IMG/VR virus record: IMGVR_UViG_3300037336_000025
Location: 32,001 to 96,000 of that record
Reading direction: 5' to 3' (one strand)
From: a virus
DNA length: 64,000 nt
Part shown: one piece after another, positions 22,195 to 56,247 of the stretch
Layout: each line of letters starts with the position of its first letter
Position numbering within the stretch: the stretch's first letter is position 1
Notes under the pieces: model-generated
What the model was told of the DNA's origin: nothing
What the model saw: only the letters and a program-made list of their open reading frames with translations
Database searches by the model: none
Program-made: the position numbers and the translations under genes

Positions 22195-22200
22195 TATTTA
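22195..22200 (-). promoter_or_regulatory. Putative late promoter TAAATA, 5 nt upstream of ATG 22189
   Basis: Minus strand reads gaaTAAATAcatatATG; no SD before ATG 22189. Confidence 0.5.
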
Positions 22201-34200: not shown

Positions 34201-35985
34201 AGGCTGGTTGACTGCTGTTTTTGCTTGGCTAGCTAACCAACTTGATCCATTGAAATAATACATCAATCCGCCGTTATTCTTACCTCGACGTACTAATACT
34301 CCGGCGCCTGCTACAGAATCAGAATCTGTAGTTTCTGCTAAATGTATTCGTTTTTTGTTATTATGTGTAATAAAGTTAACTTCGTAAATTTTATTGTTTG
34401 CAAGAATATCAGTATCAGCAGTTACTAAAATTCGAGCGCCTTCAAATAAATTTTCTCCATCAATGTTGTAGCCAACACTACCTTCTATTTTAGAAAATAC
34501 ATCTGTTGTATAATCATCAATATAGTCTACAACTTCTTTAGAAATACTACCATGATTAAACAATTGAATGTTTGACTTAAACTCAATGATAGGACGTTTT
34601 GCTCTTTGAGATTCAGTTGCTGAAAAATCTTCGCCTCGTAAAGTGTAAGAATATTCTAATACATTTCGGTGGAACCAACGGTTATAACGACTCCAAGGAT
34701 TAGTATCTTTGCTATCACGTTTGATAGTGATATAATCTTTCTGTGCAGGATATGTTGTTGCATCGTCAAACGGCTGAGTATCAAATCCTTCATTATCAAA
34801 TACAACTTCCGGAGTATCTGTTGTCAACACAGGAACAATAAGATCTGCAAACCGTGTTAATGTAATTGCTGTGCCTACTCCTTCTACTAGCCAACTGTCT
34901 AGACTATATTTTAAAGGAGTAACTTGTCCTCTAAATTCTAAAACCATGCCGTTTGAGAATGTTATTCCGTTGCTGCTAGTGTAGGTTATTTTGCCAATGA
35001 TGTCTTTATCAATGTTTATCTTTGTGTTTGCCTCAATATCAGTAATTAGAAACCTACCAAACTTGTTAGGATCAATTAAACTTTGATAGAATAATACATC
35101 AGGTGCGTCGTACGGTACTTTAAAAGTTAAGGTTCCGTTTTCAATTCCATTATTAGTAACACCAATGCTATAGTCAAGGGCAGTGCCTGACGCTACAAGT
35201 GCTATAAATTCCCAATCCTGACTTCCAAGCGTAATACTACTGCTGGCTCCAGACGCAATTGCTACTTTAGCTTTCCATAGTTTGCCATCATATACCGCTT
35301 GTTCGTTTGCAGAATATGGGCGGGCTGGATTGAATATTAATGAGCCAGTGTCATAGTTTGTTCTAATTGCAAACCCTTCTTTAGGTGCTTTAATTTGAAA
35401 TTTATATGATTGGCCACGGTATAGTGTAATTGTTGGATTATTAGTAAATGAATCAGGAGTAAAGATAAAAGAGTTTAATCCGAGAGCAACTTTGTATGTG
35501 CTAATAATTTTTGCTGATTGACCGAATACTGGTATCGCTGGTGGTCCACTAGGTTCCCAGTAGTATTCGCGATAGTTAATAAACTTGTCCCAGTCAATAG
35601 GAGGATTCCAACTGTAGTGTTCTTGGCCTGTGATTAAGTCGTCACGTTCCTCTGTATTTCCAAAGAACTGTAATTGATTTTTAAAATCGAGATAATCGTA
35701 GAAACTGTCTACAGTGTTATTGGTTCTAGAAACTACTCCAGGTTCTAACTGATATCTGCTACGTAGTGTATTATCAGTATCAATATAGATATCAGATCCG
35801 TTGTATGTATTTCCATAGCGTCTTCCAACATATCCTACTAACTTTTGTAAGGTGCCTGGTTGAACTAACGGATCAACCACTGCCGACATGAATTTGTCAT
35901 TCGCGTCTGATCTAAAAACTGTTGGTAACAATTCAACAGTTTTTCTGATTGGTAAACCGCTTTGAGGGAATTTTTTATCTGCCAT
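22198..35985 (-). CDS. Giant (4595 aa) virion protein, probable baseplate wedge/gp7-position protein with adhesion-type modules
   Basis: Uninterrupted 13.8-kb ORF directly downstream of gp6; about six short Trp/Tyr modules, about six FG-GAP-like repeats and Ig-like C-terminal repeats. The gp7 equivalence is from synteny only. Confidence 0.6.
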   Translation of the reverse strand: MADKKFPQSGLPIRKTVELLPTVFRSDANDKFMSAVVDPLVQPGTLQKLVGYVGRRYGNTYNGSDIYIDTDNTLRSRYQLEPGVVSRTNNTVDSFYDYLDFKNQLQFFGNTEERDDLITGQEHYSWNPPIDWDKFINYREYYWEPSGPPAIPVFGQSAKIISTYKVALGLNSFIFTPDSFTNNPTITLYRGQSYKFQIKAPKEGFAIRTNYDTGSLIFNPARPYSANEQAVYDGKLWKAKVAIASGASSSITLGSQDWEFIALVASGTALDYSIGVTNNGIENGTLTFKVPYDAPDVLFYQSLIDPNKFGRFLITDIEANTKINIDKDIIGKITYTSSNGITFSNGMVLEFRGQVTPLKYSLDSWLVEGVGTAITLTRFADLIVPVLTTDTPEVVFDNEGFDTQPFDDATTYPAQKDYITIKRDSKDTNPWSRYNRWFHRNVLEYSYTLRGEDFSATESQRAKRPIIEFKSNIQLFNHGSISKEVVDYIDDYTTDVFSKIEGSVGYNIDGENLFEGARILVTADTDILANNKIYEVNFITHNNKKRIHLAETTDSDSVAGAGVLVRRGKNNGGLMYYFNGSSWLASQAKTAVNQPPLFDVFDSNGISFSNTDTYPINSFNGNKLFAYKIGNSIADKELGFSLSYLNIDNVGDIQFDWNWEIDNFTYTLDQLELTKNISSGYFKINPDDVYLNGWTKTDNTYIQPIIDSQVITEVTNTIKLTTINWDNVTDNTNLIINFYVNQQQKQVTPITRERGVFTFANNFAVDDVVYVKIITDLSPDTGYYEMPVSLEKNPLNQALTTFTLGQAIDHVAGSVEFDTRYSGNIPGISNIRDLDDYQPFAKRFLKHSGIAPLAVSLLCDKTSNIIKSIQHARKSYTDFKNNFIARSTTIDYNDNLINFVDDIITDLTKTKNADSAFSNSDMIGSGAFIAINYTVEDTGITTFALSEKFTLTELSNRAVYVYINNQQLLNATEYEFNATFGFITILADLAENDEVEIREYISTAANYIPSTPTSMGLYKKYTPMKFVDDTYQEPREVIQGHDGSITASYGDFRDDLLLELEYRIYNNIKQEYNTAIFDNDLVVGGYYSNVLYTKSQLDGIVVQEFLKWVQNTNINYTINEYFDSENSFTYTYSNMTDPSGTQNLPGYWRGVYQWFFDTDRPHRCPWEMLGFSEQPVWWEAEYGSAPYTSGNLILWEDLEAGIIRKGTTAGTYDRYKRPGLTTYIPVDSDGNLLSPLDAGVSKNFTLINNRGSFVLGDVSPAEYAWRSSSEWPFAVTLAMCLMKPFEFITDSFDRSNTTTNILGQTINSKTGVFSTLKDIVISTASNELTSGLVKYVSSYIRSIGADISEVNTKLRNLDVNLSTRLSGFVDKAQQKYILDSKNPSATSSNIYIPAENYDIIFNVSSPIASVSYSGVILEKSEGGWVISGYDNIHPYFNYYPAVANQADPTISVGGVSETFTDWTTNKTYNNGQIVRRNNTFYRALRTHSSSTVFDTAQWKKLPQLPLVGAVEAQRRRTFNTLNLSRLSYGARLDTVQEVVNFLLGYEAYLKSVGFTFNRYDPANQVSQDWTTSCKEYMFWTRQNWAVGSLITLSPGAEKLDITIPVGVADNILDGFYSYQLLKADGKPLAPNFINVNRSFQNITVATTNTTEGIHYLTVYYVLKEHVAIFSDRTVFNDIIYDKSTGYRQDRLKTQGFRTVDWDGDYTSPGFLFDNVNITAWAPFNDYKLGDIVSYRSYNWTSLVNQLGSETFNNTSWTKLDSTPEKQLVANFDYKINQFEDYYNVDAEGTGESQRALARHAVGYQTREYLQTLAEDPVTQFQLYQGFVREKGTANAISKVFNKLSRSTGDSIVLNEEWAFRVGRVGGTDQLREIEFEFSKNKFKIDPQPFLLTANIDTAITDQYYRIAQSNFTVSPIDFTFNVTPVAYSNGLEKTAGYVKNDQIDFILKSRDDILDLDINSVVENDHIWITFDSYTWTVLRYNQAPQLNIIDVSLADGQVTITLSRRHSLIVDDIVGVKEIPNLTGFFKIVEVGDYTLVVEATSTTAPEFDASTLTTLYTLTTARTASYDTLDPEAAALLVNGAKLWVDNNGSDLWEVIRKNKQFVNKELTEYGITTPINAGTKVIYDDNLKQTISSIPGSGYVMSYIESHNGLTLKQIIAPLSGFESNVVGSFGSKMAISPDSRWLIVSSPLASGIKSNYQGGFSSASYIEDDIVLYAGSLWKANKDINTSDYSTIDLDSENWEQANSIPALSSGRAPGFTQQGMISIYEWSNQQWNIHSSFVSPRPQEYEFFGSEVAIGVSGTEYYMAVSAIGSLENRGRVYLFEYDGVEWTHKENSSYAGIYDPTGATSYPAGTIVWFNESLWQSLEDQLGDGSSITVDSQQWTQLDPGSTHTSLPSNISIDDDGSTLALINLTEEATIGILGNTQLAELIKVGDEFGTSMTMSRDGGILVIGAPNSDGQYFANYRGQWRADVEYAENDVVKSETQYYKLTDATSINDDPSGSGLPWINVGDSTTVSSGKVYIYQRSTLGTYDLKQTINAGSMVGLNDITTGNTEINAGDQFGFAIDVDYSGTTLVITSPRADLNLINQGSAYVFETAGLAALEFRLKQKLESFEQYADEWFGQSISISSGTERIAIGAKNTPFVNVTMFDTLDGTSFDQSLTRFIDAKGYAGAVYVFERKADSYFLTEKLEAELSPFESFGNSIDCTRSAIAVGSPRFVAPVLSGSAFTYPGQKIGTVRLFRKDETIESWEVLSTKQKIVDLAKIRSIGLYDNVKNTKIQDIDYVDHANLKILNSAEQELAFKTPFDPAVYTLGTDDQVVEPTQSWTTKHVGELWWDLSQAKWIDYQQGDIAYRVGNWNTLAAGASIDIYEWVESLLLPSEWSGVADTNEGIAEGISGQPLYPNDNVYSVKELFNSNTGLATSTLYYYWVKSKVTVPENMPSRRISAASVASYISSPAGTGTAFVALLDTDKILTYNFTSVISSDTALLNIEYRKTTDSLNAIHNEYQLLTEGVADSVPTKQLETKWIDSLIGINLTGDRVPDSTLSDKQKYGISFRPRQSMFVNNIAALKAAIQRVNTVLQQESFADIINFNNLNLIDQAPNAVLNRYDVAVDTYADLLLVGTAKTRQATLSVNIVDGLIDTIDIVSPGFGYKPTELVNQSIPGVYVGPTISITGTGTGATAACRIDGQGRVIAVVITSKGKKYSSASATVRQFSVLVNSDATSNNFWSIYAWDDVRKVFFRSISQSYDTTRYWSLSDWWKEGYTPTDRIVKEITNLSEYPAITNLEAGDLVRIKEYGAGGWAVFEELTNLQNTSINTFLDNHQLVGREKGTVELSSSLYDITSSGIGYDTAQTFDATYYDIGNSTELRNIFAAIKENIFIGDYAIEWNRLFFNSVRYAFAEQTYIDWAFKTSFLTATHNVGPLTQKLNYKNDNIESFQEYINEVKPYRTTVREYISRYDTIEAAPSAISDFDLPPTYSVEAGKIVPVNQYSIELQSYPWKWWTDTNGYSITAITTYKSGADYISAPAVLITGTGTGATAQAYISNGAVSGIKVTNPGTGYTSAPTVTLVGGNPASSEQAKAVAFIGDSKVRTFDLTMKFDRISKTGLFTTFSQSQTLVGTGNVSVFNLNYAPTRDKSKISVVKNGQVLLNNQYFISLFTSTTDTYSLLKGKISFAEIPARGDSIVVNYEKNDSLLDSVNRIQKYYAPTAGMKGNELTQLMTGIDFGGVQIQGTTFDVTGGWDALPWFTDNWDSVESSADYYVVCDGSTVNITLPFVPATGQEINIYIKRVGDQRSIRIDDPAFNNQVDSSTSSNPNAEMPTFIGDGVTATVDFVNQLTDFPYVETAAGDILIFRPIESDGSVSINDGNLLDTNLSGGTLASMTGAYSTATGITADEISIDGDKFISPDQVPATEENVPGQVLDSVSIKVFNNTSTGAAPLQSKTIIADGTTKLYTIDLNVLETTSVLVYVNKINQEDSYTIDFVSNQIEFIVAPTAESIIEIISVGIGGIVLLDYQEFVADGETSLFLTAANFADTSSVFVTINGQREDIGFTNSSALTSTTNKTLIQFGTNPEFRDVVKIICLGSSTVTDSSGVSLVQVHKQSFEFEGSTRNFDLAEFVNLPSASAASSMIVEVNGVALRGPDTSYYVYDGITNKFVLGLDPVESAGAILTSNIKLFVNNVERTVIRDYVYDGTNKIITITPAILSNGNTIRIENNLRSEYYVENNNIVIAAGVELTSTNETDNDIIDVTWFSEYPTMRIISDEFTGGKVNYFLQRTPLSINYVWVYKNGIRLTKDIDYFITLPRGSIYLTDNSTTNDLIKVVMFGTDIYKLPSAYEIHKDMLNIYRFTRYSINSVTLAVALNYYDQTITVTDATELTAPIASRNIPGVVEINGERIEYTRKAGNVLSQLRRGSHGTSIGNLYAIGTPVVDQGSREVIPYNESQIREDFISDGNTILIGPLNYVPAKSSRNNWVRTTIPTTYGPCDEIEVFVGGRRLRKDPLAVYNEINGASSPGADITLEAEFSVDGSAVIIRLTEAVSAGTRISIIKRTGNSWYDRGEDTATSGITLLENATPIANFIAKRTTKLPE

Positions 35986-36007: not shown

Positions 36008-39000
36008 TTAAACGCTAGAACCGACTTCGGCGGTTGTTATTGCTGACACTATTTCTACATCATCTACTGTTGCGCCGCTGATTAAAATTTCGTCAGGCCC
36101 GCTTTGAATTTCAAATAAACTACCAAATGCTAAACTAGCCTGTCTTGGTGTTATTGTTAAATTGCTAATGTCTGGTGCTGTTTGATTTAGTATATATGTG
36201 TTCATTTCACTTAGGTAAAATCTATCTCCGAAGTCCCAATTGTTTATATCAAAGAACTCATTAATAGCTGTGATAATTCTTACTTTGAGGTCGTTGTCGT
36301 TGATTGCTTTATTAGGATTCTTAACTACTTTAAATTGTGCTTGTAGATTCGCTGCCGCAGTGCTGCCAAATAATACTTTGTAGGTTACCGGATGATATAT
36401 AATCTCATCGCTGATCGATTTAATCGCATTTAGATTTGTACCAAACGTTATTTGCAAACTATCGCTGCTAGGTGCTTCTGGTTCTGTACTTCCGCCTGCT
36501 AGATAAATCCTATAAGCAGTATCATAACTTCTAGTCATTAAAAATACATCAATAATATTACTTACGCTAGGATCAATTCGGCGATCAACACTAGCGTTAT
36601 GCACGTATTGGAATTTTAATTTATCTCTACCAACTACTCCTTTGTAGGAGCTTTCTAATATCAATGTGTTAGTAACTTTGTTTACTCGCTTAACACGATT
36701 TTCTGCAGAGTCATAAAAATAAATTAAATTGCCGTTGGCATAATCATTAACGTTAACTAGTGATTCTTTCTGTACCACTGTGATATTATTAGAAGAATTA
36801 TCAACCAATTCGTATGTTGTGTTTCCTGCAGAATCTGTTACTTCTTGGAAGAATAGATAATTTAAATCTGCATCTTCACCTATAATCTGTTCAAATTGCT
36901 CAGGATTATCAATAACGCCGTCGCTGTCAATATCTGAAAATGCAACTTTGATTTCTTTTGCACTTTCATATCCATCGTCAAATTTAATAGTATCGGTAAC
37001 TTCAAATGCGAAATCCTGCTTGATAGCACTACCTGATCCATCGCTAACTGTGTTGATTCCTAAAATTGTTACAGTATCTTTTACAACTGCGCCAACTTGA
37101 TTATTGTATTGTTTTTGGTTAACATCATAGTAAAATCTATTTTGTTCAACACTACCAGCAATATAGTCTAGGCCTCGTATCCGTACTCTATATTGATCTG
37201 CTTCTCTAATAAATGCAATTATCCATGATGCATCTAAATTGTTGCTAGTAGTGTCACCTGAACGTCCTAAACTAAAGTCACTAACTGAATCTAGGTTAGA
37301 TGAAGTGATAATATTCCATGTTGATGCTTCAACTTCAAATCGCAGTCCAAAATTTAAATTTTGAGATACTTGATTAACAATTTCCGATTCTAATGCAGCA
37401 GGCAGATCATTTACAAATTTTGGAATAATACGCTGAGCTATTGCTCCAGACGGAATAGTATCACTAAACGACACAGGACCTAGTCCCGATGTTAATATAC
37501 CTCTGCCAGAATTTGTACCGTCGCCGACAACTTTAATTACTTTGGTCCACAGTCGATCAGTTTGCAACGAATCTGCAAGGTTAATGTCTACAATTTGTCC
37601 ATTCTTAAATGCTTTACCTGTAGGAGGAACAAATTTAACCAACGCACCAAATTTAACATATTTTAAATTATTAGTAGAATAAGTGCCAACTTGGAATAAC
37701 GATTGGTCTACTGAGTTTTTAAAATACCCGGTAGTAAGATTTACTTGAGTTGTTGTTTGTTCCCATACAGTGTTAGTTTCAGTGAATGTTATTTTATCAA
37801 AATTAGTTATGTAGAAGTTATAAACATCGGTGTCTGTAAATACAGGCTCAACACTACGCTTAATAAAATTAATAATATCTATTCGGTTTGACCATTTAAA
37901 AGTCAATGCTCTTTCAATTTCTTCTTTATATAAGAATCCGTCATTTGCAAATACATTAACTGAACTGTATTTTCCGCTGGCATCAATAATTTCAAAGTTG
38001 CGAGAAATTCCGCTACTTGTTCTATTAACTGCTTTAATTTTTAAAATATCTTGGCTACTTGATAACGGTGCAAGATTGTAATCTTCACCAGTAATCATTC
38101 TATTTTGTGTATAATATACCGCAGGTGCATTTGTTCTAATAGTGTCAATATCTTCAGAAGCTGCACTTGAAGATACACTTGACTGCAATGCTAGCCCAAT
38201 AGTTAATGTATGCTGTACTCCTTGTTTGTTAGTATAAGGAACTGCAATGTTAATACCGCGCATTTCTGCCGGTGCAATAGTATATGATAATCCGTTACTA
38301 ACTCTATAGTAAACTCTAAATGCACCTTGTGGAATATTACCGTATACTCCATCAGCAAATTTTAAATCAATACGGTCGTTTTCTTTAGTAACAACTGAGT
38401 AGATATTTCTAATATCTTGACTTAGACTATTGTAGGCAATATTGTTACCTAGTAACGTAGATACCGGAGTCCATTCATTTAGTTGTGTGCCTGTTGAGCT
38501 TAGGCTGTATAACCATACATCATTGTTATTAATGTTAACACTGTCAACTGAGACTGTTTCATTAGTTGTAGGAACTTCAATATTAAAGTCTGCAAGCTCT
38601 AAACTGCCCTGTTTAAACATCAAGTAAAAACCAGTGTTAGAACTACCAGGCCCTTTGCCGTCATTACGGTAGACAAATCCTACTTGATTACCAGGAACAG
38701 GCGGTTCTTCGTATATGCTGGTGCTACCATTAAATGATGTGCTTACAATTTCAAAAGCCATGCCGCGGCCGGCTACAGTTTTGTTAAATGTGTAAACTGC
38801 AACGTCTGTGCTAGTGCTACGCAATCTATATTGTTCTGTAGGAATGCCTTGTATAGTTGCACTACCTTGGCTGCGCCCAAACTCTGTATTATCTGCCATT
38901 GCAGAATTCAACACAGTTATGAATTGTTCTAACCAATTAGTGTTAGTTGGGTCGTTCCAAGAGATAATTTGCTGTGCTAAGTTTTTACCGTTACTATCAA

Positions 39001-39388
39001 GAATGTCTTCGGTAGTTGTAACTGTAGAGAATTTTAAAAGACCGCTAGAAGAGATGTTTCTTTTGGCGTTGTAGCTTAACATACGAGCAAGACGTAGGAC
39101 ACTTTCCTTACGCTCTGCAAGCTCAATAAAGTTTTCTCTTGATGCTAGATCAATACGGAAAGCAAGACTTTGACCTAAAAATGCAACAGCATCAATAAGA
39201 GCCATGTACTCAGATGACTCAATATAATCGTTAAAATCTTCCGGATAGTTTTCACGGAGATAGGTAATAATGACACGACGTAAATTTTCAAAGTCGTAAC
39301 TTTTAAAGTCAGCATTACTAAACGTCTGGTAGATTCTAGTCCAATCTTGGTTTAAAATTAAGTTATTTTGTCTTGTTGTCGTTGTCAT
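36008..39388 (-). CDS. gp6: Baseplate wedge protein, T4 gp6-like (extended, 1126 aa)
   Basis: DFENLR...YL......F.DY.ESS....LID..A...F..D....ENF...AERKESVLRLARMLSYNAKR N-terminus; EDIDTIRTNAP..Y.TQNRMITGEDY baseplate-J motif. Confidence 0.85.
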   Translation of the reverse strand: MTTTTRQNNLILNQDWTRIYQTFSNADFKSYDFENLRRVIITYLRENYPEDFNDYIESSEYMALIDAVAFLGQSLAFRIDLASRENFIELAERKESVLRLARMLSYNAKRNISSSGLLKFSTVTTTEDILDSNGKNLAQQIISWNDPTNTNWLEQFITVLNSAMADNTEFGRSQGSATIQGIPTEQYRLRSTSTDVAVYTFNKTVAGRGMAFEIVSTSFNGSTSIYEEPPVPGNQVGFVYRNDGKGPGSSNTGFYLMFKQGSLELADFNIEVPTTNETVSVDSVNINNNDVWLYSLSSTGTQLNEWTPVSTLLGNNIAYNSLSQDIRNIYSVVTKENDRIDLKFADGVYGNIPQGAFRVYYRVSNGLSYTIAPAEMRGINIAVPYTNKQGVQHTLTIGLALQSSVSSSAASEDIDTIRTNAPAVYYTQNRMITGEDYNLAPLSSSQDILKIKAVNRTSSGISRNFEIIDASGKYSSVNVFANDGFLYKEEIERALTFKWSNRIDIINFIKRSVEPVFTDTDVYNFYITNFDKITFTETNTVWEQTTTQVNLTTGYFKNSVDQSLFQVGTYSTNNLKYVKFGALVKFVPPTGKAFKNGQIVDINLADSLQTDRLWTKVIKVVGDGTNSGRGILTSGLGPVSFSDTIPSGAIAQRIIPKFVNDLPAALESEIVNQVSQNLNFGLRFEVEASTWNIITSSNLDSVSDFSLGRSGDTTSNNLDASWIIAFIREADQYRVRIRGLDYIAGSVEQNRFYYDVNQKQYNNQVGAVVKDTVTILGINTVSDGSGSAIKQDFAFEVTDTIKFDDGYESAKEIKVAFSDIDSDGVIDNPEQFEQIIGEDADLNYLFFQEVTDSAGNTTYELVDNSSNNITVVQKESLVNVNDYANGNLIYFYDSAENRVKRVNKVTNTLILESSYKGVVGRDKLKFQYVHNASVDRRIDPSVSNIIDVFLMTRSYDTAYRIYLAGGSTEPEAPSSDSLQITFGTNLNAIKSISDEIIYHPVTYKVLFGSTAAANLQAQFKVVKNPNKAINDNDLKVRIITAINEFFDINNWDFGDRFYLSEMNTYILNQTAPDISNLTITPRQASLAFGSLFEIQSGPDEILISGATVDDVEIVSAITTAEVGSSV

Positions 39389-39869: not shown

Positions 39870-41468
39870 TTATACGTCCCTATCCGTGTTATCCGGAGTT
39901 AATAAGTTAGGTGCTTGATTCTCATGCAGCGGCCAAGGCTCGTGCATAGGTATGCGTTTCATAATACTGTTTGTGGTACCTGACTGATATTTTGTTGATG
40001 CCCAATTCCTATCACCACTCGTTACTGGATTAGCATGTAACGGTAACGGCCTAACGAAGTCGGCATTTACTGCTGGATCAGCAGCAAGATCACTGTTCAT
40101 GTTAATAGTTGCCGCAGTTTCTTTATGATCCCCTGCACTACCTATACTAGTGTTTCCAGAAGTACTAAATTTGTTATCACCGCCTGAATTAAGATCAAAT
40201 GTTCCTACTTGAGATACTTTTGTATTTGCACCTACAAGTATATCAAGATTCTTACCTATAGTAATTTTGCCATCAGCATTGGCAAATACTTCAAAATTTG
40301 TTGCAGTTTCAACATGCATTTGCCCAGACAACGTTTTGATATTAATGTTGCGGCCAGCTTCCATGTTAATATCACGGGCTGCTTTAATGTTTAAATCATT
40401 TTCAGTATGGATACTGATACTATCGGCAGCATAGATATCTATTTTACCATTGCTAGTCAGTTCTACCCATGATGTACCTCTAGCATTTCCAATGTAGATT
40501 AAATCTTCGCTGTTATGCATTAGCAGTTGGTGGCCGGTTCTTGTACGGATACGGAAGTATTCGCTGTACGGAATAGTAGGGTCGCCCTTTTCGCCGGCAA
40601 GTACATCTGCATACTTTACAGGGCCGCCTGTTGGACCTCCTGCTGGCGTTGCACGTTGATAACGATCGTCGCCGTCGTCCATGACAAACTGTGTTCCGCC
40701 TAGTCTGCTGACTGGAACTGTTGCAGTTGTTTGGCTTGACAATGTTCCTAATCTTGCTTTCTTTGCTTGGCTACGTTTGTCTAGTGGTCCTGGAGTAGAT
40801 ATTCCGAATACCATGCTAGGAGTATTACGTCTAGCACTTGAAGTAGTAACTCCCCGGACATCATCTTCTACTAGTCCTTGTTCTAAGAATCTTTCAGCAA
40901 TAGGGTGTAATGGCCTCTTTTTATTATCAATGTCAACTGACTGGTCTTTTGCATTCAATCTACGATTTAGTTCTGCAATTGGCAATGGCTGTTTAGTATT
41001 ATATTTGTCTTTGTCCGCCTTGTCCATATCGACTTGTGTTGACCCTGCGATTGCAGGAACCATATTATTAGCAAATCTACTAGGTATACATCCAATCCAA
41101 TATCCTTGACTAGGATCTCCATCAACAAATACTACTAATACTGTTACTCCCGGATCTGGTGGTACGAACCACATACCATAGCTTTTTTGAGTATCGTTAA
41201 ACGCTTCAATTGTTGGAACTTTTCCGTCAGTAGCAGTATTTTGTCCCATGTTCTCATAGGCAGTGTACCCATAAAATGGCTGGGCACATTTTACAATGTA
41301 TGTTTGTGTATCCTCGCCAATAGTGTTTCCTTGATTTCTAAGTAAAGTAACTTCTAAACTTCCCATAAAACTTGGATCTAAGTGACTAATAATTTTAGCC
41401 AAGTAGGGCCCTGCGCCGATATCTTTTTTGTCTGTTACTGCTACTGAGCTACGTTTTTGTTGTGACAT
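39870..41468 (-). CDS. gp5: Central spike protein, gp5/VgrG-like (OB-fold plus beta-helix), no lysozyme domain seen
   Basis: SYGMWFVPPDPGVTVLVVF.DGD..QGYWIG OB-fold; IRTRTGHQLLMHNSE...GTSWVELTSNGKIDIYA...SIHTENDLNIKAARDINMEAGRNINIK beta-helix repeats. Confidence 0.8.
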   Translation of the reverse strand: MSQQKRSSVAVTDKKDIGAGPYLAKIISHLDPSFMGSLEVTLLRNQGNTIGEDTQTYIVKCAQPFYGYTAYENMGQNTATDGKVPTIEAFNDTQKSYGMWFVPPDPGVTVLVVFVDGDPSQGYWIGCIPSRFANNMVPAIAGSTQVDMDKADKDKYNTKQPLPIAELNRRLNAKDQSVDIDNKKRPLHPIAERFLEQGLVEDDVRGVTTSSARRNTPSMVFGISTPGPLDKRSQAKKARLGTLSSQTTATVPVSRLGGTQFVMDDGDDRYQRATPAGGPTGGPVKYADVLAGEKGDPTIPYSEYFRIRTRTGHQLLMHNSEDLIYIGNARGTSWVELTSNGKIDIYAADSISIHTENDLNIKAARDINMEAGRNINIKTLSGQMHVETATNFEVFANADGKITIGKNLDILVGANTKVSQVGTFDLNSGGDNKFSTSGNTSIGSAGDHKETAATINMNSDLAADPAVNADFVRPLPLHANPVTSGDRNWASTKYQSGTTNSIMKRIPMHEPWPLHENQAPNLLTPDNTDRDV

Positions 41469-45337: not shown

Positions 45338-46186
45338 ATGAATACCGTACCCAAAATAAAGTACCTAACTAACAAAGATCTATTAAAAGAGATCCACAGA
45401 AGCAAAAACACATTTTGTACCTACTCTGCGCCCGAATACGCAGACTATGATATGATTATACCAAATGTAGAAAAGATCAATATTCGTACAATAGCGGAAG
45501 CTAAACGCAATAGAGCATCAAGATTAGCTAAATTAGCCCACGAAGCTGCTGTACTTGCAGGTGGTAAAAAGTTACCTTCTAAAGAATTCGAAATCGACTA
45601 TAAAACTATCAAGAAAGATGATGTAGTTTTTAGAGTTATGACCTTTGTACATGTTCCGCTTGCTCCGGGTCGTAAGAAGACTTTAAAAAATACTGCCGAT
45701 AGTCACGAAAAAGTGAATTTTCCTCCGTTCCAACACTGGAAGTTTGATGCTAATAATAACCTAATCTTAGTTGGTAAGAGCCACTGGAAAGGTGATTTTA
45801 CCACAGGAGTGTTTAATAAAGAACACGGGCAAATGACTAACAATCTAGCTCGCATGTTTTTAAAATTATGTGAAAGATATGCGACCAGAGGAAACGTTCG
45901 TGGCTATACTTACAACGATGAAATGCGCGGTCAAGCAATCCTTCAGCTCACCCAGATAGGTTTACAATTTGATGAAAGCAAAAGTGATAACCCGTTTGCT
46001 TACTATACCGCTGCTGTTACTAACAGTTTTGTTCGCATTATCAATATTGAGAAGCGTAATCAAAACATTCGAGATGATATTCTCGAAATGAACGGAATGA
46101 ACCCAAGTTGGAGTAGGCAGAACAGTGGGTCCGGAGGCGGTGGAGCAACTATTTCAGCTACACCTCCTGTTGGCGATAACGACTAG
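45338..46186 (+). CDS. gp55: Late-transcription sigma factor, T4 gp55-like
   Basis: YLTNKDLLKEI N-terminus and NVRGYTYNDEMRGQAI...FDESKSDNPFAYYTAAVTNSFVRIINIEKR match the gp55 YVNNKELL and NF.GY...EM...FD..K..NP.AY.T...NAF..I.KE blocks; AGGAG SD. Confidence 0.85.
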   Translation: MNTVPKIKYLTNKDLLKEIHRSKNTFCTYSAPEYADYDMIIPNVEKINIRTIAEAKRNRASRLAKLAHEAAVLAGGKKLPSKEFEIDYKTIKKDDVVFRVMTFVHVPLAPGRKKTLKNTADSHEKVNFPPFQHWKFDANNNLILVGKSHWKGDFTTGVFNKEHGQMTNNLARMFLKLCERYATRGNVRGYTYNDEMRGQAILQLTQIGLQFDESKSDNPFAYYTAAVTNSFVRIINIEKRNQNIRDDILEMNGMNPSWSRQNSGSGGGGATISATPPVGDND

Positions 46187-49689: not shown

Positions 49690-50216
49690 CATTGCCGCTA
49701 GGCACAGACAATTTCAACAAATCCAGGCATTTAATCACCAAAAAAGCCCGCACCGGCGACTATTACTGTGCCCTAAATCCGTTCTGATGTGTGACGGTAA
49801 GGAATCTCTACTTGGTGAAGAGGTTATAAATCACTATCCTTAACAGGACGACGATCGGATACGCCTACGTACAACCGGTTTGATTTATAAAGAGAATATT
49901 AAAAAGGCTAAAAGATGGGAGAGAGACCCACGATTACTATGTGCGATAGCGTGTGCATAGTAATTCGCCGTTATTATTAAGACGGAATGAGTAGGTACCG
50001 GATAACCGCCTACGCAAGCAGCAATGCTTATAGTTCTAACGCTACTGTGTACTGTGCAACTCGCATAATGCTAGATTTTCTTAGCCCGCAAGGGCTAAGT
50101 GTGACTGAACAATCTGCATAATACTTAATTGCATTAATAACATATCTCTTAAAATACTGTTAAATAAAAGAAGTGCTTTGAGCGTGAGCGAAAAAGCAAA
50201 TGAGCTTTAGCTCATT
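49690..50216 (+). ncRNA. Candidate large structured non-coding RNA (about 530 nt), family unassigned
   Basis: The 596-nt gap (49683-50278) is the only long non-coding gap in the window and has no ORF in the track. It holds more than 10 helices, e.g. 49824-49833/49881-49890 (perfect 10 bp), 49933-49945/49952-49964 (13 bp with G.U), 49991-49995/50009-50013, 50016-50029 and 50080-50099 (GCAA tetraloops). GNRA loops and G.U pairs favour the + strand. Boundaries are approximate. Confidence 0.7.
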
Positions 50217-50223
50217 ATTGTAA

Positions 50224-50229
50224 TAAATA
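50224..50229 (+). promoter_or_regulatory. Putative late promoter TAAATA
   Basis: Immediately after the last hairpin of the candidate RNA and upstream of ORF 50279; a second copy lies at 50161-50166. Confidence 0.45.
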
Positions 50230-50278
50230 AACTATAGATCTGAAAAAGATTATAACATATGCCTAGGAATGAATTAAA

Positions 50279-50836
50279 ATGCGACTAACTGAAATCTTAA
50301 CTGAATCACAAGAACTTGAAGAAGGACCGTTAGGTGCTATTGGTCGTGGACTAGCTAAGGGCATTGGCGGGGTTGCTAAAGGCGTTGGTATGATTGGCGG
50401 CATTGCAGGTGGCGTTAAGAAAGCGTACCAAAAAGGTAAAGCTACTTCTACTGCAACCATTGCAGGTGATGTTCCAGATGCAGAACAAGATCCAGCTGCA
50501 GAACAAGATCCAGCTGTGAAAAAAGCATATGACGATGAATATGCTAAAGTTACGGCTCCTAAGAAAGCAGCTCCTAAGAACGCAGCACCAATGGCAGCAG
50601 CATCTGGGTACAAACAAGCACAGCAGGCCATTGCCACTTTAAAGCCTAGCGAGAAACAGAAAATTCTTGCTATGCTACAAACTTCAATGACAGCGCCGGC
50701 TCCTGTACGCAAAAATCCAGTTAGAGTTACTGGCAGAGCAGCAGCTCAACCAGCTCAACCAGCTATGCAGACTCAAAGTAAAGTTAATAGCGGTAAAGTA
50801 GTTGCCGAAGGCTTTACATTGTTCCGTCAAAAGTAA
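50279..50836 (+). CDS. Hypothetical Ala/Lys/Pro-rich protein, possible head-internal protein
   Basis: N-terminus MRLTEILTESQELEEG carries L/I-x-E motifs; low-complexity body; AGGA SD; followed by a terminator. Confidence 0.65.
   Translation: MRLTEILTESQELEEGPLGAIGRGLAKGIGGVAKGVGMIGGIAGGVKKAYQKGKATSTATIAGDVPDAEQDPAAEQDPAVKKAYDDEYAKVTAPKKAAPKNAAPMAAASGYKQAQQAIATLKPSEKQKILAMLQTSMTAPAPVRKNPVRVTGRAAAQPAQPAMQTQSKVNSGKVVAEGFTLFRQK
50479..50516 (+). repeat. Exact 18-bp tandem duplication (TGCAGAACAAGATCCAGC x2) encoding AEQDPA
   Basis: Read directly from the sequence; in-frame within ORF 50279-50836. Confidence 0.9.
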
Positions 50837-50850
50837 TATATACAGCCAAC

Positions 50851-50877
50851 AAAAAGCCTGCTTTAAGCAGGCTTTTT
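50851..50877. terminator. Bidirectional intrinsic terminator
   Basis: AAAAAGCCTGCT-TTA-AGCAGGCTTTTT perfect inverted repeat with A/T tracts on both sides, between convergent genes. Confidence 0.9.
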
Positions 50878-50882
50878 TATGA

Positions 50883-51086
50883 TTAAAAGAAAGGTAAGTT
50901 AGTTTTCTTTGTAGTCTCTAAGTTTTCTTTAATAATCTCAGCAACAATTTCTCTTTCATCATGACTTAGATTCATGCCTTCACTATAAGAAAGACCTCTC
51001 ATGTACCAACACATTTTGAGAACGTCTTTCTTGATTCCCTTAACCTCAGACTCCATCCGTTTGGCTATCTGTAAAATCTCCGGCAA
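50883..51086 (-). CDS. gp51: gp51-like baseplate hub assembly protein; probably translated as a -1 frameshift extension of the gp26-like gene
   Basis: LKMCWYMRGLSYSEGMNLSHDERE motif typical of gp51-like proteins (...Y.....E..N....ER). Only a TTG start without SD; the frame stays open upstream to 51152 across a slippery site. Confidence 0.65.
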   Translation of the reverse strand: MPEILQIAKRMESEVKGIKKDVLKMCWYMRGLSYSEGMNLSHDEREIVAEIIKENLETTKKTNLPFF

Positions 51087-51119
51087 AGGGCTGTTTAAGA
51101 TTTTACTGCGAAAAAATTT
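51071..51119 (-). promoter_or_regulatory. Candidate programmed -1 ribosomal frameshift signal
   Basis: Minus strand: A_AAT_TTT (51119-51113, overlapping T_TTT_TTC) in the gp26 frame, a 6-nt spacer, then a perfect 9-bp stem GTAAAATCT/AGATTTTAC (51106-51098/51079-51071). The -1 frame is exactly the gp51-like ORF. Confidence 0.7.
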
Positions 51120-51961
51120 GATTGGTCCATTGTCACAGGTAGTAAGAACTCCTTATGACAGTCTCCGCATTGGACATCTTTTGCTTTAAACTCTATAGTA
51201 TCTTTAATTTTAGTAATGTGTGTTTGGATAGCTTCAAATACATCTTTAGATGAATTATTAATAAAGTCTTTGATCTGAACTTTATCGTCAGTGGATCCGT
51301 CTGGAGTTTCAATATGTGTAATGCAATCTGCAATAATATCAACTGTGAGTTCAGTTAGTCTAACAAAACTTTCACCAAACTTTTCTAACTTTAGTTCATC
51401 GCTGATTTCTTCATTATTGATAATACTAAAAATCTTCTGTTGCTCTAGTGTTTTAATTGATGCTTTTGTAACTTCTTTATAGTTGTAAGGTCTCACATGC
51501 ACGTTTAGCGGCCCAGCTTCTACAATTGAATTGTAAGTAAATTGGCTAAAGATACCAATCCAGTCTGACAGGTTGATATCGTAGGTATTTTCTTCTTTGC
51601 AATGTGGACAGTCTACTCTAACTTCCATGTTTTCGCCGTAGGTAGCGATGCGGATAGCAATGAGTGCAAAGTCTAGATCAATACTGGGCATTGCCCAGGG
51701 ATCTAAAATAGCAGGAATACAACTTTTAATAACTTCAACTGTACTTTGCCCGCTTAACAGTGCATCAGGAGTTTTAAACATTAACTCGTCTTTGGCAGTC
51801 ATTGAGTATACAGGATATTCTTCGTTTGCACTAACGTCTAATGCACCTGGGGGATAGAATCGACCTTGACTAGGCAATCTCACATAGATTTTAGGCTGTC
51901 TATACCAATTAGCCAAAGGATTTAATTTTGGCGTTTGCGGTATATTTACATTTTGATTCAT
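51095..51961 (-). CDS. gp26: Baseplate hub assembly protein gp26-like (288 aa)
   Basis: VYSMTAKDELMFKTPDALLSG...DLDFALIAIRIATYGE...CPHC...and C-terminal CGDC zinc motifs. Start corrected from 52045 to ATG 51961 (GGAG SD at 51968-51971). Confidence 0.8.
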   Translation of the reverse strand: MNQNVNIPQTPKLNPLANWYRQPKIYVRLPSQGRFYPPGALDVSANEEYPVYSMTAKDELMFKTPDALLSGQSTVEVIKSCIPAILDPWAMPSIDLDFALIAIRIATYGENMEVRVDCPHCKEENTYDINLSDWIGIFSQFTYNSIVEAGPLNVHVRPYNYKEVTKASIKTLEQQKIFSIINNEEISDELKLEKFGESFVRLTELTVDIIADCITHIETPDGSTDDKVQIKDFINNSSKDVFEAIQTHITKIKDTIEFKAKDVQCGDCHKEFLLPVTMDQSNFFAVKS

Positions 51962-51973
51962 ATTTTTCTCCGA

Positions 51974-52001
51974 TAAATACAATAGTGTTATAACGTATTT
52001 A
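51974..52001. promoter_or_regulatory. Face-to-face pair of late promoters (TAAATA + strand 51974-51979; TAAATA - strand 51996-52001)
   Basis: TAAATAC...GTATTTA 7-bp inverted repeat in the divergent gp26/tape-measure gap. Confidence 0.55.
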
Positions 52002-52029
52002 TGTACGCAGTTTACCAGGAATTTATTTA

Positions 52030-54528
52030 ATGGCATCAGTAACAATTGATATACCAGGCATAGGAAATGTAGAAGCTAAGAATGCAGCGTCTGAAGCCAC
52101 CTTACGAGAGTTAGTCAGTGCTATTAAGGGAATGAAAGGTGGAAAAGGTAATAAAGACGACGAAAAGAATCAGAGAGATCGAAATAAAAATCAGAAAGAA
52201 GATAACGGTAACCGGAAAGCTAGCACTGATCATTTTAAAAGACTAACAGTTGGTATCAGTAGCGTTGTTGGAGGGTTCTTTACTCTAGGTAATAAACTAA
52301 CCAGCACTGTTAGCCAGTTCGCTCAGTTAGATGGTTCAATTACAGATGCAGCTGATATATTTAAACAGTTACCAATTGTGGGCGGCCTAGTAGGTGGAGC
52401 ATTTGGAGCAGTTGCTGGCGCAGCTGATAGAGTTACTAAATCATTTGTAAATGCCGCAGGCGGCGGAGCAAGTTTCGGTGGAAGCATGGCTAGTTTCTCT
52501 GCATCAGCATCTCAAGCTGGCATGAACATGGCAGAATTTGGATCATTAATTAAAAATAACGGCGCTGGCTTGATGGCCTTTGGTACAACTACCGAAGATG
52601 GTGCTAAAAACTTTGCACAAGTTTCAAAATCAGTACGGTCAACTAGTTCAGAGTTATATGCACTAGGTATGAGTAGTCAAGAAATTAATGGCGGTCTTAT
52701 TCGATATGGTGCGTTATTAAGAAGTCAAGGGTTGTCTGGCGGTAAGACTAATGCTCAACTAGCACAAGGTGCAAGGACATATCTAAAAGAGATGGACGGC
52801 CTTGCAAAGATTACCGGCGAAGAACGTTCTGCTAAAGAAGCACAAGCAGCAACACTGGCTAAAGATGCACAGTTCCAAGCAGCAATGGCTGGACAAAACG
52901 AAGAAGTACAAAAGTCTTTTAGAAATACTGTTCTCGGATTGCCAGAACCGTTGCAGAACTTTACCAAAGATATGTTGGCCAACGGTACAGCAACTACTGA
53001 AGAGAATCAAAAGTTGTTAGCGCAATTGCCTCAGTCGGCGGCTATGTTAACTACTATGCAACAGAAGATGCAGCGTGGTGAAGCGGTTACTGATGCAGAA
53101 CGTAACGCTCTTAACAATAAAATGAAGGAAGAGGGTGCAAAGAATCTAAAAAATATTAAAAGTGCAGCAGCAGCCGATGCTAGTCTTGCAGGAACCACTA
53201 ATGCACTGGCAGCCACTTACCAAATTGCCACAGACGGTGTGAAGAAAGCAGGGGAACAACAGGGCGAAGCTGCAAAGAACACTGACAAGATGAATGAGAA
53301 GATGCAAAAGTTTCAGCAAAGTCTTGCAGAAATTGGAAACGCTTTTTCAATGGCATTAGCTGGAAGTGGTATGCTTGATGTATTAATGGGAGCATTTAAA
53401 ATTGTTGCCGATCTAGTAACAACTTATGTGTTACCTGCCTTTATGATTTTTAGCGATATTATTACACAAGTTGGTATGTATCTTGTAACAAATTTAAAAC
53501 CAATATTTGAAAGTATTGGAAACTTTATTAGAGATAGCCTGTACCCAGCTTTCCTAACTTTGGCAGCATTTGTGTTGGTAGATATTGTTCCAGTACTGCA
53601 AACAATGGCCACAGTAATATCCGAATATGTTACTCCGGTGTTATCTGTTATAGGTCAAGTATTTCAATCAGTTGCATCTTTCATTGCTGATAATTTTATG
53701 CCTATAATGTACGGTCTAGGTGCAGGGCTTGCAACATTAACTACTTTATATCTAATTAAAAACGGAGTATTACTAGCTGCAATTGTTGCGCAAAGCGCAT
53801 TAACTTTAGCAATGGCACTATTAACTAGTCCGATATTCTTACTTATTGCAGGCGTTGTTACATTAGTTGCTATTTTTAAATCATTATATGATAGTGGTTA
53901 CACATTTAGCTCTGCACTTGACATGATTGTTGACAATATTTTAAATTTAATAAACAAGATTACGTTTGGCTCAACAGGAATTAGTGACGATGAGCTCAAA
54001 TCTAGAAATGATAAACGAGATCTAGAAAAAGAAAAGATAGCAGCTGAGCGCGATGTTGATAGCAATAAAACTGCCAGAGCAGAAAAAGCTGCTGAAATTG
54101 ATAAAAAATTAATTACTTTAAAAGACAAACACGTTAAGAAATTAGGTGTTGAAAACGATAAAACAGAAGCAGCACAATCAAAGACTAATTTTAATACAAG
54201 CAACAGTTTAGATTTGTTAAAATCCGAAGTAGCAATTGCCGGAGGTCCAAAATCAGGCGGTATGGCCACAGCTGAAACCGGAAAGAGAGATATTGAAACT
54301 AAAAAAGAAGCTGAAGTTAAAGCCAAAGCAGACGAAGAAGAGATGAAGAAATCAGGAGGTGCCGCTACTGCTACTGCACCTACTCAAGAATCAGCAGAAT
54401 CATTACTTGCTAGCTTAAATACTAAGTTGGAGCAGTTAATAAAAGTAAATATGAACATGAAAGATGTTCAAGATAGACAGCTTACAGTGCAGCAAGGATT
54501 GAGCGGTGACTTATTTGCCAGCGTCTAA
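52030..54528 (+). CDS. Tape measure protein (832 aa)
   Basis: Long Ala/Gly-rich helical protein with amphipathic Pro-spaced repeats and a hydrophobic stretch; adjacent to the gp26/gp51 chaperone pair. Confidence 0.75.
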   Translation: MASVTIDIPGIGNVEAKNAASEATLRELVSAIKGMKGGKGNKDDEKNQRDRNKNQKEDNGNRKASTDHFKRLTVGISSVVGGFFTLGNKLTSTVSQFAQLDGSITDAADIFKQLPIVGGLVGGAFGAVAGAADRVTKSFVNAAGGGASFGGSMASFSASASQAGMNMAEFGSLIKNNGAGLMAFGTTTEDGAKNFAQVSKSVRSTSSELYALGMSSQEINGGLIRYGALLRSQGLSGGKTNAQLAQGARTYLKEMDGLAKITGEERSAKEAQAATLAKDAQFQAAMAGQNEEVQKSFRNTVLGLPEPLQNFTKDMLANGTATTEENQKLLAQLPQSAAMLTTMQQKMQRGEAVTDAERNALNNKMKEEGAKNLKNIKSAAAADASLAGTTNALAATYQIATDGVKKAGEQQGEAAKNTDKMNEKMQKFQQSLAEIGNAFSMALAGSGMLDVLMGAFKIVADLVTTYVLPAFMIFSDIITQVGMYLVTNLKPIFESIGNFIRDSLYPAFLTLAAFVLVDIVPVLQTMATVISEYVTPVLSVIGQVFQSVASFIADNFMPIMYGLGAGLATLTTLYLIKNGVLLAAIVAQSALTLAMALLTSPIFLLIAGVVTLVAIFKSLYDSGYTFSSALDMIVDNILNLINKITFGSTGISDDELKSRNDKRDLEKEKIAAERDVDSNKTARAEKAAEIDKKLITLKDKHVKKLGVENDKTEAAQSKTNFNTSNSLDLLKSEVAIAGGPKSGGMATAETGKRDIETKKEAEVKAKADEEEMKKSGGAATATAPTQESAESLLASLNTKLEQLIKVNMNMKDVQDRQLTVQQGLSGDLFASV

Positions 54529-54543
54529 TAATAGGATAATATA

Positions 54544-56247
54544 ATGAGTTGGAAAAAATACTTCACCCCAGTAGACACATCGAATCAATCAGGATCAATG
54601 AGTCCATTGGGCGGCCAAGGGCGGCCCGGGCCAGCTCGTACTAATTACTCAAGCTACTTGCCAGATGTATACGCAGGTAGTCCGAACCGTATTGAAAAGT
54701 ATATTCAATACGACACAATGGATATGGACAGTGAAGTTAACGCTGCATTAGATATCCTTGCTGAATTTTGTACACAGCGCGATAAAGAAAACGAAACACC
54801 GTTTAGTACACACTTCCGCGGCAAGCCAACTAGCACTGAAGTTAAACTAATTAAAGACAGCCTGCAGAAGTGGGTCAAGCAACAACAATTTGAAACACGT
54901 ATATTCCGCATTGTGCGTAATGCATTCAAATACGGCGACTGTTTCTTTGTACGTGATCCTGAAACTAAAAAATGGCTATTTGTTGATGCTGCTAAAGTAA
55001 GCAAAATTATTGTAAACGAAAGCGAAGGTAAAGTTCCTGAGCAGTATGTTATTAAAGATATGAACTTCAACTTTGCAAATCTAGTTGCAGTTACTCCACA
55101 CGGAACATCTAACACTAGCCCTAGCGGTACAAGCTCTTACACCACAGGTGGCGGATTTGGACGCGGTATGGTTGGTGATATGGGACAGTCTCCTGGTACA
55201 CGTTTTCAAAATGCTTCAAACGAATTTTGCGTTGATGCAAAAGATGTTGTGCATATTTCATTAAGTGAAGGACTAGATAGAAACTATCCTTTCGGCAATA
55301 GCTTGCTAGAATCAGTATTCAAAGTTTACAAGCAAAAAGAATTGCTGGAAGATGCAATTATTATCTATCGTATTCAACGTGCGCCTGAACGTAGGATTTT
55401 CTATGTTGACGTGGGTAATATGCCAGCACACATGGCCATGAGCTTTGTTGAACGTGTTAAAAACGAAATACAGCAGCGCCGCATTCCTAGTGCTAGTGGC
55501 GGCGGTTCAAACATTGTTGACTCAAGTTATAATCCATTAAGCACTAACGAAGATTATTTCTTTCCGCAGACAGCAGAAGGTCGCGGATCAAAAGTAGAAA
55601 CGTTACCAGGCGGTACTAACCTAGGTGAAATTACTGACTTACGCTTCTTTACTAACAAGTTATTCCGTGCGTTGAGAATTCCCAGTGCTTACTTGCCAAC
55701 AGGTGTTGAAGAATCAAGTAACTCAGTTGCCGATGGCAAAGTTGGCACAGCATACATTCAAGAACTACGATTTAACAAGTACTGCGAACGGTTGCAGGCA
55801 ATGGTTGTCGAAACATTCGACTTAGAATTTAAGTTATGGATGCAGCACCAAGGCATCAATATTGATTCAAGTTTGTTTGACTTAAGATTTAATCCTCCGC
55901 AAAACTTTGCTGCTTACCGTCAAGCAGAACTTGATACTACTCGTGTTGGAGTGTTTGCGCAGGTGCAAGAAATTCCACATATGAGCAAACGTTTTGCTAT
56001 GAAACGATATCTTGGTCTTACTCAGGAAGAGATTGTAGAAAACGAAACATTATGGCGCGAAGAAAACGGCAACAAGCTAAAAGCATCTACAGATGCAGCA
56101 AGCGAGATGCGATCAGCAGGTATTACTCCAAGCGGTATGTCAGCTGATTTAGGCGGCCAAGATGAAACAGCTCCTGATGATATGGCAGCAGCAGCCGAAG
56201 CAGGCGCAGCAGCCCAGGCACCTGCAGAAGAACCTCCAGCAGTATAA
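54544..56247 (+). CDS. gp20: Portal protein gp20
   Basis: LLEDAIIIYRIQRAPERRIFYVDVGNMP...EDYFFP...GRGSKVETLPGGTNLGEI.D..FF..KL.RAL.IP signature. Confidence 0.96.
   Translation: MSWKKYFTPVDTSNQSGSMSPLGGQGRPGPARTNYSSYLPDVYAGSPNRIEKYIQYDTMDMDSEVNAALDILAEFCTQRDKENETPFSTHFRGKPTSTEVKLIKDSLQKWVKQQQFETRIFRIVRNAFKYGDCFFVRDPETKKWLFVDAAKVSKIIVNESEGKVPEQYVIKDMNFNFANLVAVTPHGTSNTSPSGTSSYTTGGGFGRGMVGDMGQSPGTRFQNASNEFCVDAKDVVHISLSEGLDRNYPFGNSLLESVFKVYKQKELLEDAIIIYRIQRAPERRIFYVDVGNMPAHMAMSFVERVKNEIQQRRIPSASGGGSNIVDSSYNPLSTNEDYFFPQTAEGRGSKVETLPGGTNLGEITDLRFFTNKLFRALRIPSAYLPTGVEESSNSVADGKVGTAYIQELRFNKYCERLQAMVVETFDLEFKLWMQHQGINIDSSLFDLRFNPPQNFAAYRQAELDTTRVGVFAQVQEIPHMSKRFAMKRYLGLTQEEIVENETLWREENGNKLKASTDAASEMRSAGITPSGMSADLGGQDETAPDDMAAAAEAGAAAQAPAEEPPAV

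Follow-up and report, generated by a model that had tools for sequence, protein, structure and literature searches.

Probable programmed −1 ribosomal frameshifting in a gp26/gp51-family baseplate hub assembly gene of T4-related jumbo phages

The locus described here lies in a 64,000-nucleotide stretch of viral DNA (the window: the whole stretch analysed, bases 32001-96000 of the 186-kb linear IMG/VR jumbo-phage record IMGVR_UViG_3300037336_000025, estimated completeness 53%), where an open reading frame (ORF) related to the T4 baseplate hub assembly genes 26 and 51 is followed by a second frame in −1 phase. The upstream frame, ORF1, occupies 51095..51961 on the minus strand and runs from ATG 51961 to TAA 51097-51095; it encodes 288 amino acids (aa) ending SNFFAVKS*, and a Shine-Dalgarno GGAG, read from the sequence, stands 6 nucleotides (nt) 5′ of its ATG (51968..51971, minus strand). 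Four codons before the end of ORF1 sits the heptamer T_TTT_TTC, in the ORF1 frame (51110..51116, minus strand), from which the −1 frame (50883..51110, minus strand) reads FFRSKILNSPLPEIL... for 75 codons past the two phenylalanines (FF) to a TAA at 50885-50883. A shift at this site would give a trans-frame long form of 359 aa (284 + 75), complement(join(50883..51110,51110..51961)) on the minus strand, with the predicted junction peptide ...EFLLPVTMDQSNFFR, alongside a short form with the predicted C-terminal sequence ...EFLLPVTMDQSNFFAVK. A putative stimulatory hairpin follows on the same strand at 51071..51106. We argue that this is very probably a programmed −1 ribosomal frameshift in a single gp26/gp51-family baseplate hub assembly gene, which would thereby produce 288-aa and 359-aa forms. 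A preliminary description of this DNA had proposed the frameshift from the sequence alone; the ORF ends, heptamers, stem and product sizes that it gave all check, and the frameshift itself is strongly supported by junction comparison (112 distinct in-phase junctions, covarying hairpin).

ORF1 matches the gp26/gp51 hub assembly family PF12322 (T4_baseplate) over residues 63-284 with 63.9 bits against a cut-off of 24.5, matches the baseplate hub family phrog_150 with E 3.5e-22, and is the sole PF12322 gene of the 186-kb record. It carries two CxxC knuckles, CPHC and CGDC, which are zinc-ribbon-like. Its closest cultured relatives by protein are jumbo myophages, among them Phosso, Atu_ph07, PA5oct, 121Q, RaK2 and CBB, at 25-33% identity, and no DNA-level relatives of the locus were found by blastn against 50,697 phage records.

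Conservation of the slip site was followed in a set of 84 loci, which comprises the best 80 of 354 IMG/VR relatives (59-99% identity) and includes Atu_ph07, PA5oct and 121Q. Aligning the junctions of related phages, a check proposed together with the frameshift, showed the phase to be constant: an in-phase xxT TTT TTC lies 1-6 codons ahead of the ORF1 stop, with a −1 extension behind it, in 84/84 loci. A second clade (34-48% identity), reached via a contiguous homolog, has the in-phase heptamer in 37/39 junction-spanning loci, and the two loci without it carry an in-frame long form. TTTTTTC was also found in eight further cultured jumbo phages (E9.1, RaK2, Paride, Phosso, CBB, XaC1, SE_PL and pEa47), and XacN1 and RsoM2USA carry TTTTTTT; these ten, together with the three already within the 84 loci, make 13 cultured jumbo phages of different genera with the site. 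Among 112 distinct junctions the heptamer is TTTTTTC in 109 and TTTTTTT in 3, and the next base is G in 107; this count takes in only junctions found by searching for the T run, and it is the locus denominators that show the rarity of exceptions. When x-F-F and the codon frequencies of the region (TTT 76%, third-position T 36%) are taken into account, the codon string has a chance probability of ~0.065 per sequence. As judged by this comparison, the conservation of the heptamer exceeds the amino-acid (F-F) constraint and is far above chance.

Two overlapping heptamers had originally been described at this site, and they fared differently. T_TTT_TTC is universal and is the conserved shift site, whereas A_AAT_TTT (51113-51119, minus strand) is present only in most close relatives, being missing from loci L044, L072 and L073 and from 12 of the 13 cultured phages (SE_PL is the exception). 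A slip on either would give the identical protein. In most close relatives GGAC or GGAT, formed by Met-Asp codons, is found 8-11 nt 5′ of T_TTT_TTC (51121-51126 in the window, minus strand); it could be a weak dnaX-like Shine-Dalgarno stimulator, or merely reflect conserved M-D residues.

Downstream of the heptamer, a stem formed by GTAAAATCT (51106-51098) and AGATTTTAC (51079-51071) encloses an 18-nt loop. With an additional U-G pair its arms extend over 51106-51097 and 51080-51071, giving 9 Watson-Crick pairs plus U-G and a loop of 16-18 nt. The minimum free energy of the hairpin is −10 kcal/mol (z −3.1 vs shuffles), and the spacer behind T_TTT_TTC is 3 nt long if the outermost possible pair is counted and 6 nt long if it is taken up to the best-conserved core. 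Across 57 distinct relatives, 92.3% of cells are paired in the hairpin (columns 11-20 with 37-46), as compared to 32-51% when the partner is slid by 1-3 columns. Columns 15 and 42, which are synonymous third bases of Lys and Ile codons in the −1 frame, covary (GC 38, AU 18, GU 1, mismatch 0), and further compensatory pairs were observed at columns 12/45 (UA 41, CG 7, AU 1) and 14/43 (AU 45, GC 4, GU 1). RNAalifold by itself returned just the 5-pair core, and in distant phages different hairpins are predicted, 6-17 nt downstream. A downstream hairpin at short spacer is thus backed by covariation, which had been looked for as a further check on the proposed frameshift. A pseudoknot between CCCTT in the loop and AAGGG, also put forward originally, was rejected as unsupported, with 70% pairing that is equalled in the register slid by +1.

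The −1 frame is conserved as far upstream as the slip site and no further. In the 84 loci the extension measures ~77 aa counted from the slip site; conservation of the −1 frame runs from FFR onward (mean column identity 79%, 18 invariant columns), and the same frame is unconserved 5′ of FFR. The 0-frame tails vary in both length and sequence (A*, E*, RES*, AVKS*; 1 to 11 codons). In an AlphaFold2 (AF2) model of a contiguous homolog, the extension is predicted to be a helical domain.

Long forms also occur naturally without an interruption. When a profile of the extension was compared with 1.84 billion proteins, 326 matches were obtained at E <= 0.001, and the top 150 include ~20 proteins of 319-351 aa that are uninterrupted, have the extension as C-terminal domain and show junctions of the type ..LDxSxxFRxK(I/L)(I/L)... 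Seven additional long proteins of 342-368 aa, five of which were read, all belong to PF12322. On a 260-kb IMG/VR contig (G002, locus L153, 1315-3237) the slip site is absent and PF12322 paralogs lie in tandem: a 350-aa in-frame long gene is immediately followed by a short gene of ~271-283 aa that ends just before the FF position and is without the extension. The divergent gene upstream of this pair is tape-measure-like, matching an 832-aa protein encoded next to ORF1 (described below) with BLASTP E 3e-6. T4 has two PF12322 genes, whereas Atu_ph07, PA5oct and 121Q, whose genomes are complete, have a single one apiece. Both forms appear to be needed, because they are made either by two genes (G002, T4) or by one recoded gene. 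Two irregular sequences were encountered in the same searches. P0246 is a 145-aa fragment, 78% identical to the extension of the window, that reads ..QANFFRSKIL.. in one frame, owing either to a different length of the T run or to an indel introduced in assembly. In P0247 (274 aa, named 'transposase-like protein' at its source) the body is joined straight to mid-extension, which makes it an apparent deletion variant.

Taken together, these comparisons establish the site, its phase, the hairpin, −1 coding from the slip site and the existence of natural uninterrupted long forms. How the ribosome comes to read the −1 frame admits more than one answer. With a homopolymer run at the junction, RNA polymerase might add one U in the T6 run, so that an edited mRNA would be translated normally; the run reaches T7 or longer in XacN1 and RsoM2USA, and the in-frame fusion recorded for the close relative P0246 could reflect run-length heterogeneity. 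Conservation of the terminal C in 109/112 junctions and of the next G in 107/112 speaks against such transcriptional slippage, as does the fact that the run, read in the ORF1 frame, is invariably an X_XXY_YYZ heptamer. A covarying hairpin at a distance of 3-6 nt is a classical stimulator of ribosomal frameshifting, and six T are short for efficient transcriptional slippage in bacteria (a process reviewed in PMC5009743). We give this explanation a slim chance.

In public records the extension is treated in another way. None of those examined annotates a frameshift; the extension is entered as a separate 'hypothetical protein' or falls in an unannotated gap, and 121Q, E9.1, Phosso, CBB, XaC1, SE_PL, pEa47 and XacN1 are all annotated with a separate gene. 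A separate small gene would have to be translated by independent initiation, or by termination-reinitiation near the ORF1 stop, at TTG 51086 or ATG 51056. These are the first TTG and the first ATG of the −1 ORF in the window and neither is preceded by a Shine-Dalgarno motif, which bears out the initial observation that the downstream ORF has no ATG or Shine-Dalgarno sequence at its 5′ end. In 14/84 loci the first ATG, GTG or TTG comes only at codon 38 of the 77-aa conserved region, the 37 codons before it being conserved as protein, and the −1 ORFs of PA5oct and Paride have zero canonical start codons. Since start codons are late or absent there, independent initiation is unable to make the conserved N-terminal half of the extension. 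The existence of uninterrupted fusions is a further argument against a separate gene, under which the in-phase heptamer and the covarying hairpin would be purposeless. An ATG overlaps the ORF1 stop in some relatives (ATGA in Atu_ph07, TAATG in 121Q, and L045), and translational coupling could therefore add to expression in these phages. Reinitiation or coupling may contribute where the ATG overlaps the stop, yet it fails to explain the general pattern, and as a full account a separate gene has a very slim chance of being correct. The idea that a gp51-like gene has lost 1 nt, the arrangement being a non-functional relic or an error of assembly, can appeal to the proneness of homopolymer runs to indel errors and to the contiguous versions in other phages, but the identical break at the same base in 112 distinct junctions, with the downstream frame conserved as protein, and its presence in 13 independently sequenced cultured phages at 28-33% protein identity in effect rule it out.

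A programmed −1 ribosomal frameshift is the reading we prefer, and several points weigh against it. Support for the predicted trans-frame protein is comparative, and the hairpin covariation was computed within the window's own clade only. Only 3 nt separate T_TTT_TTC from the earliest base pair that can form, the stem-loop has a high AU content (−10 kcal/mol), and the ATG codons over the ORF1 stop in Atu_ph07, 121Q and L045 offer the coupled start discussed above. As regards the identity of the long form, PF28602, the family of the gp51 tail, appears in the precomputed Pfam lists for gp51 homologs and not in those for long forms, and equivalence to gp51 depends on weak tail similarity.

By programmed frameshifting, most ribosomes would terminate at TAA 51097-51095 and release the 288-aa short form. 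A fraction would pause at the hairpin, where the P- and A-site tRNAs (Phe-Phe on T_TTT_TTC, or Asn-Phe on A_AAT_TTT) would re-pair one base back, and the shifted ribosomes would read 75 more codons to give the 359-aa form with an extra four-helix C-terminal module. Assembly of hub and tail would require both forms in a fixed ratio, with T4 gp26 as the counterpart of the short one and T4 gp51 as that of the long one. The shared body may act on the tape-measure-like neighbour or on the hub, and the extension may add a second contact, as in lambda gpG/gpGT.

The relation to T4 gp26 and gp51 was examined at the level of both sequence and structure models. Gene 26 of T4 (208 aa) is read from the minus strand, with gene 25 next after it, and gene 51 (249 aa) runs divergently from it, on the plus strand. 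T4 gp26 ends ..EFFELL* (...GAG TTC TTT GAG...), with a non-slippery TTC TTT. Pfam PF12322 spans residues 1-206 of gp26 and 1-201 of gp51, leaving a 48-aa gp51 tail, and phrog_150 reaches position 280 of 282 on gp51 and just 235 on gp26. Because both T4 proteins are full-length PF12322 paralogs, the downstream ORF of the window matches only the ~50-aa gp51-specific tail and not all of gene 51. The locus had at first been described as a gp26-like and a gp51-like gene joined together; the PF12322 body stands, but the downstream ORF corresponds only to the gp51 tail, and genes 26 and 51 are not in tandem in T4.

Evidence for the tail relationship came from profile comparisons. The long-form alignment (A3) and a 35-member gp51 alignment (A4) are collinear to both C-termini (hhalign probability 88.6%, E 2.6e-6, 206 columns), and the extension alone aligns with gp51 residues 224-257 with P 2.3e-4, a weak profile-profile match. 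The extension scores 22.6 and 22.3 against gp51, where the best of 150 column shuffles gave 17.0 and the best of 120 gave 19.8, so that 0/270 shuffles reach the real score. Deeper alignments were required for this result: with shallow alignments hhalign gave 22-70% probability only, and the tails were misaligned. BLASTP of the extension against T4 gp51 gave no match, BLASTP of ORF1 against gp51 matched in the zinc-knuckle region only (E 0.018), no gp51 family was recovered when the extension was scanned with Pfam and PHROG, and tblastn with the C-terminal half of gp51 turned up no bridging sequence from cyanophages or jumbo phages.

A contiguous long form (mf92f7cdad80b) and a gp51 homolog (mf855e0cf6187) were modelled with AF2, with predicted local distance difference test scores of 93 and 92, respectively. 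Both Cys pairs, which read CPxC and CxxC in the long-form alignment consensus, fall on beta-hairpins in the two models, and after the second zinc hairpin both show the same succession of four helices (short, long, short, terminal); the second of these has 30 residues in the contiguous long form vs 14 in the gp51 homolog. From these profile and model comparisons the long form is the probable gp51 equivalent. The model of the contiguous homolog matches 71 BFVD models at E <= 0.001, and the named ones are mostly baseplate hub or hub assembly proteins. These matches include 430-686 aa proteins of jumbo phages, e.g. Erwinia phiEaH2 and Special G, and also reach Bacillus and Campylobacter phage proteins. 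The model matches suggest that the gp26/gp51 family is broader than its Pfam annotation.

The locus and the T4 genes share the Pfam family PF12322, a short form ending at ..FF.. and a long form (predicted here) with an extra helical tail, and in both cases the gene adjoins hub and tail genes. T4 differs in having two divergent paralogs and no slip site, where one gene with a frameshift is proposed here, and relative to T4 the body is ~80 aa longer and the tail ~25 aa longer. Leiman et al. (2010, PMC3004832) list both gp26 and gp51 as hub assembly chaperones and describe gp51 as an essential protein whose function is unknown and which the particle lacks. The gp26-like CBB_250 is missing from the CBB virion mass-spectrometry table, and PA5oct gp336 is without the electrospray ionization tandem mass spectrometry (ESI-MS/MS) tag that its neighbours bear in the record.

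Divergent from ORF1 lies the gene for the 832-aa protein (52030..54528, plus strand), which has a Gly/Ala-rich N-terminal end, hydrophobic segments at ~430-620 and a charged helical C-terminal part. It has no Pfam match, BLASTP against T4 gp29 found nothing, and its match to the tape measure family phrog_3981 is weak (E 0.01 only); the T4-type tape measure family PF25671 was found neither in this record nor in Atu_ph07, PA5oct or 121Q. The syntenic gene carries a 'similar to tape measure'-type remark in the RaK2 record and is called 'putative tape measure protein' in pEa47, and the homolog CBB_251 is a virion protein (29 peptides, mass spectrometry), which fits a virion component and is not tape-measure-specific. 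The neighbour is probably the tail tape measure protein. Its adjacent but divergent position is kept in RaK2, 121Q, PA5oct and others. The original placement of the frameshift beside the tape measure gene therefore holds as to adjacency, but the arrangement is divergent, unlike lambda G-T-H, and the tape-measure identity is only probable.

Conserved −1 frameshifting of tail assembly chaperone genes in long-tailed phages was reportedly described by Xu, Hendrix and Duda in 2004, and the short and extended lambda products G and GT are about 140 and 280 aa. The window's gene resembles this system in several respects. An X_XXY_YYZ heptamer, on which the −1 slip would take place, precedes the stop codon of an assembly-factor gene by a few codons, the products would be a short and a C-terminally extended form with a common N-terminal body, the gene adjoins the (probable) tape measure gene, and an assembly chaperone role is ascribed to the T4 homologs. 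Neither lambda product occurs in the virion; the tape measure is bound by the body that both share, and the tube protein by the extension (PMC5009743). There are also differences. Lambda's genes lie upstream of the tape measure gene in the same direction, whereas here the minus strand carries ORF1 and the plus strand the 832-aa gene; the products here are much larger (288/359 aa) and have zinc-ribbon-like knuckles; and no sequence or fold relation is detectable, PF12322 being the only Pfam match and the PHROG matches being likewise confined to gp26/gp51 families. Foldseek of the long-form model against the PDB gave no match at E <= 0.001 and VIA-align returned generic helical-hairpin matches only (Z <= 8.4), so that a link to known chaperone folds is neither shown nor excluded. 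The equivalence to G/GT that was initially suggested is thus kept as a resemblance in slip and short/long design, with no sequence or fold link to known chaperones found; we infer functional analogy, homology not being detected.

Escherichia coli dnaX (tau/gamma) offers a second comparison, as it too combines a slippery heptamer with a downstream stem-loop stimulator in a bacterial-type −1 frameshift. The shifted dnaX frame ends almost at once, so that the frameshift product is the shorter one, while here a 75-aa domain would be added. Nor is a clear upstream Shine-Dalgarno-like stimulator, as in dnaX, established at this locus.

Directly following the extension, 6 nt past its stop, an intrinsic terminator (50847..50877, minus strand) consists of a 12-bp stem and then UUUUUGUU; it was seen by folding (−19.2 kcal/mol, z −5.2) and was not listed by a consensus scanner. 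Because it directly follows the extension, ORF1 and the extension would be on one transcript ending at 50847..50877. At the other end, CATAAATA (51996-52003, minus strand) lies ~35 nt 5′ of the ORF1 ATG, with 1 mismatch vs the T4 late-promoter TATAAATA, and a gp55-like late sigma factor is encoded at 45338-46186 (plus strand; phrog_12791, E 1e-75). The only ORFs 3′ of the terminator (window 49700-50850) are 50263-50712 (minus) and 50279-50836 (plus), which overlap each other and have no Pfam or PHROG match. Beyond the 832-aa gene is a T4-type portal gene (54544-56247; PF07230, E 1e-104), and the window also codes for gp46/47-like SbcCD and for gp5- and gp6-like baseplate proteins. The latter are encoded at 36008-39388 (gp6-like) and 39870-41468 (gp5-like), and a single 4595-aa ORF at 22198-35985 (minus strand) lies amid the baseplate genes.

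In tail assembly chaperone genes, −1 frameshifting is conserved in long-tailed phages 'except T4', being held near-universal with T4 as the stated exception (PMC5009743), and literature searches on gp26/gp51 with frameshift or tail assembly chaperone returned no report of the slip. From the present results, T4-related jumbo phages appear to possess a frameshift of this kind, located in another protein family and beside a probable tape measure gene. Cultured examples include RaK2, 121Q, PA5oct, CBB, Atu_ph07, XacN1 and others, with hosts that include E. coli, Klebsiella and Pseudomonas, and the locus is mis-annotated in every public record examined, either as two genes or as a gene and an unannotated gap. 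By analogy, and as a tentative proposal that we hold to be somewhat short of an even chance, the gp26/gp51 family may be the T4-superfamily counterpart of lambda G/GT, a short/long pair in set ratio that would chaperone the tape measure and nucleate hub and tube, with one frameshifted gene being the ancestral or common state that T4 and, independently, the G002 lineage would have split. The data suggest that the puzzling hub 'catalysts' of T4, gp26 and gp51, are a two-gene version of the same short/long design.

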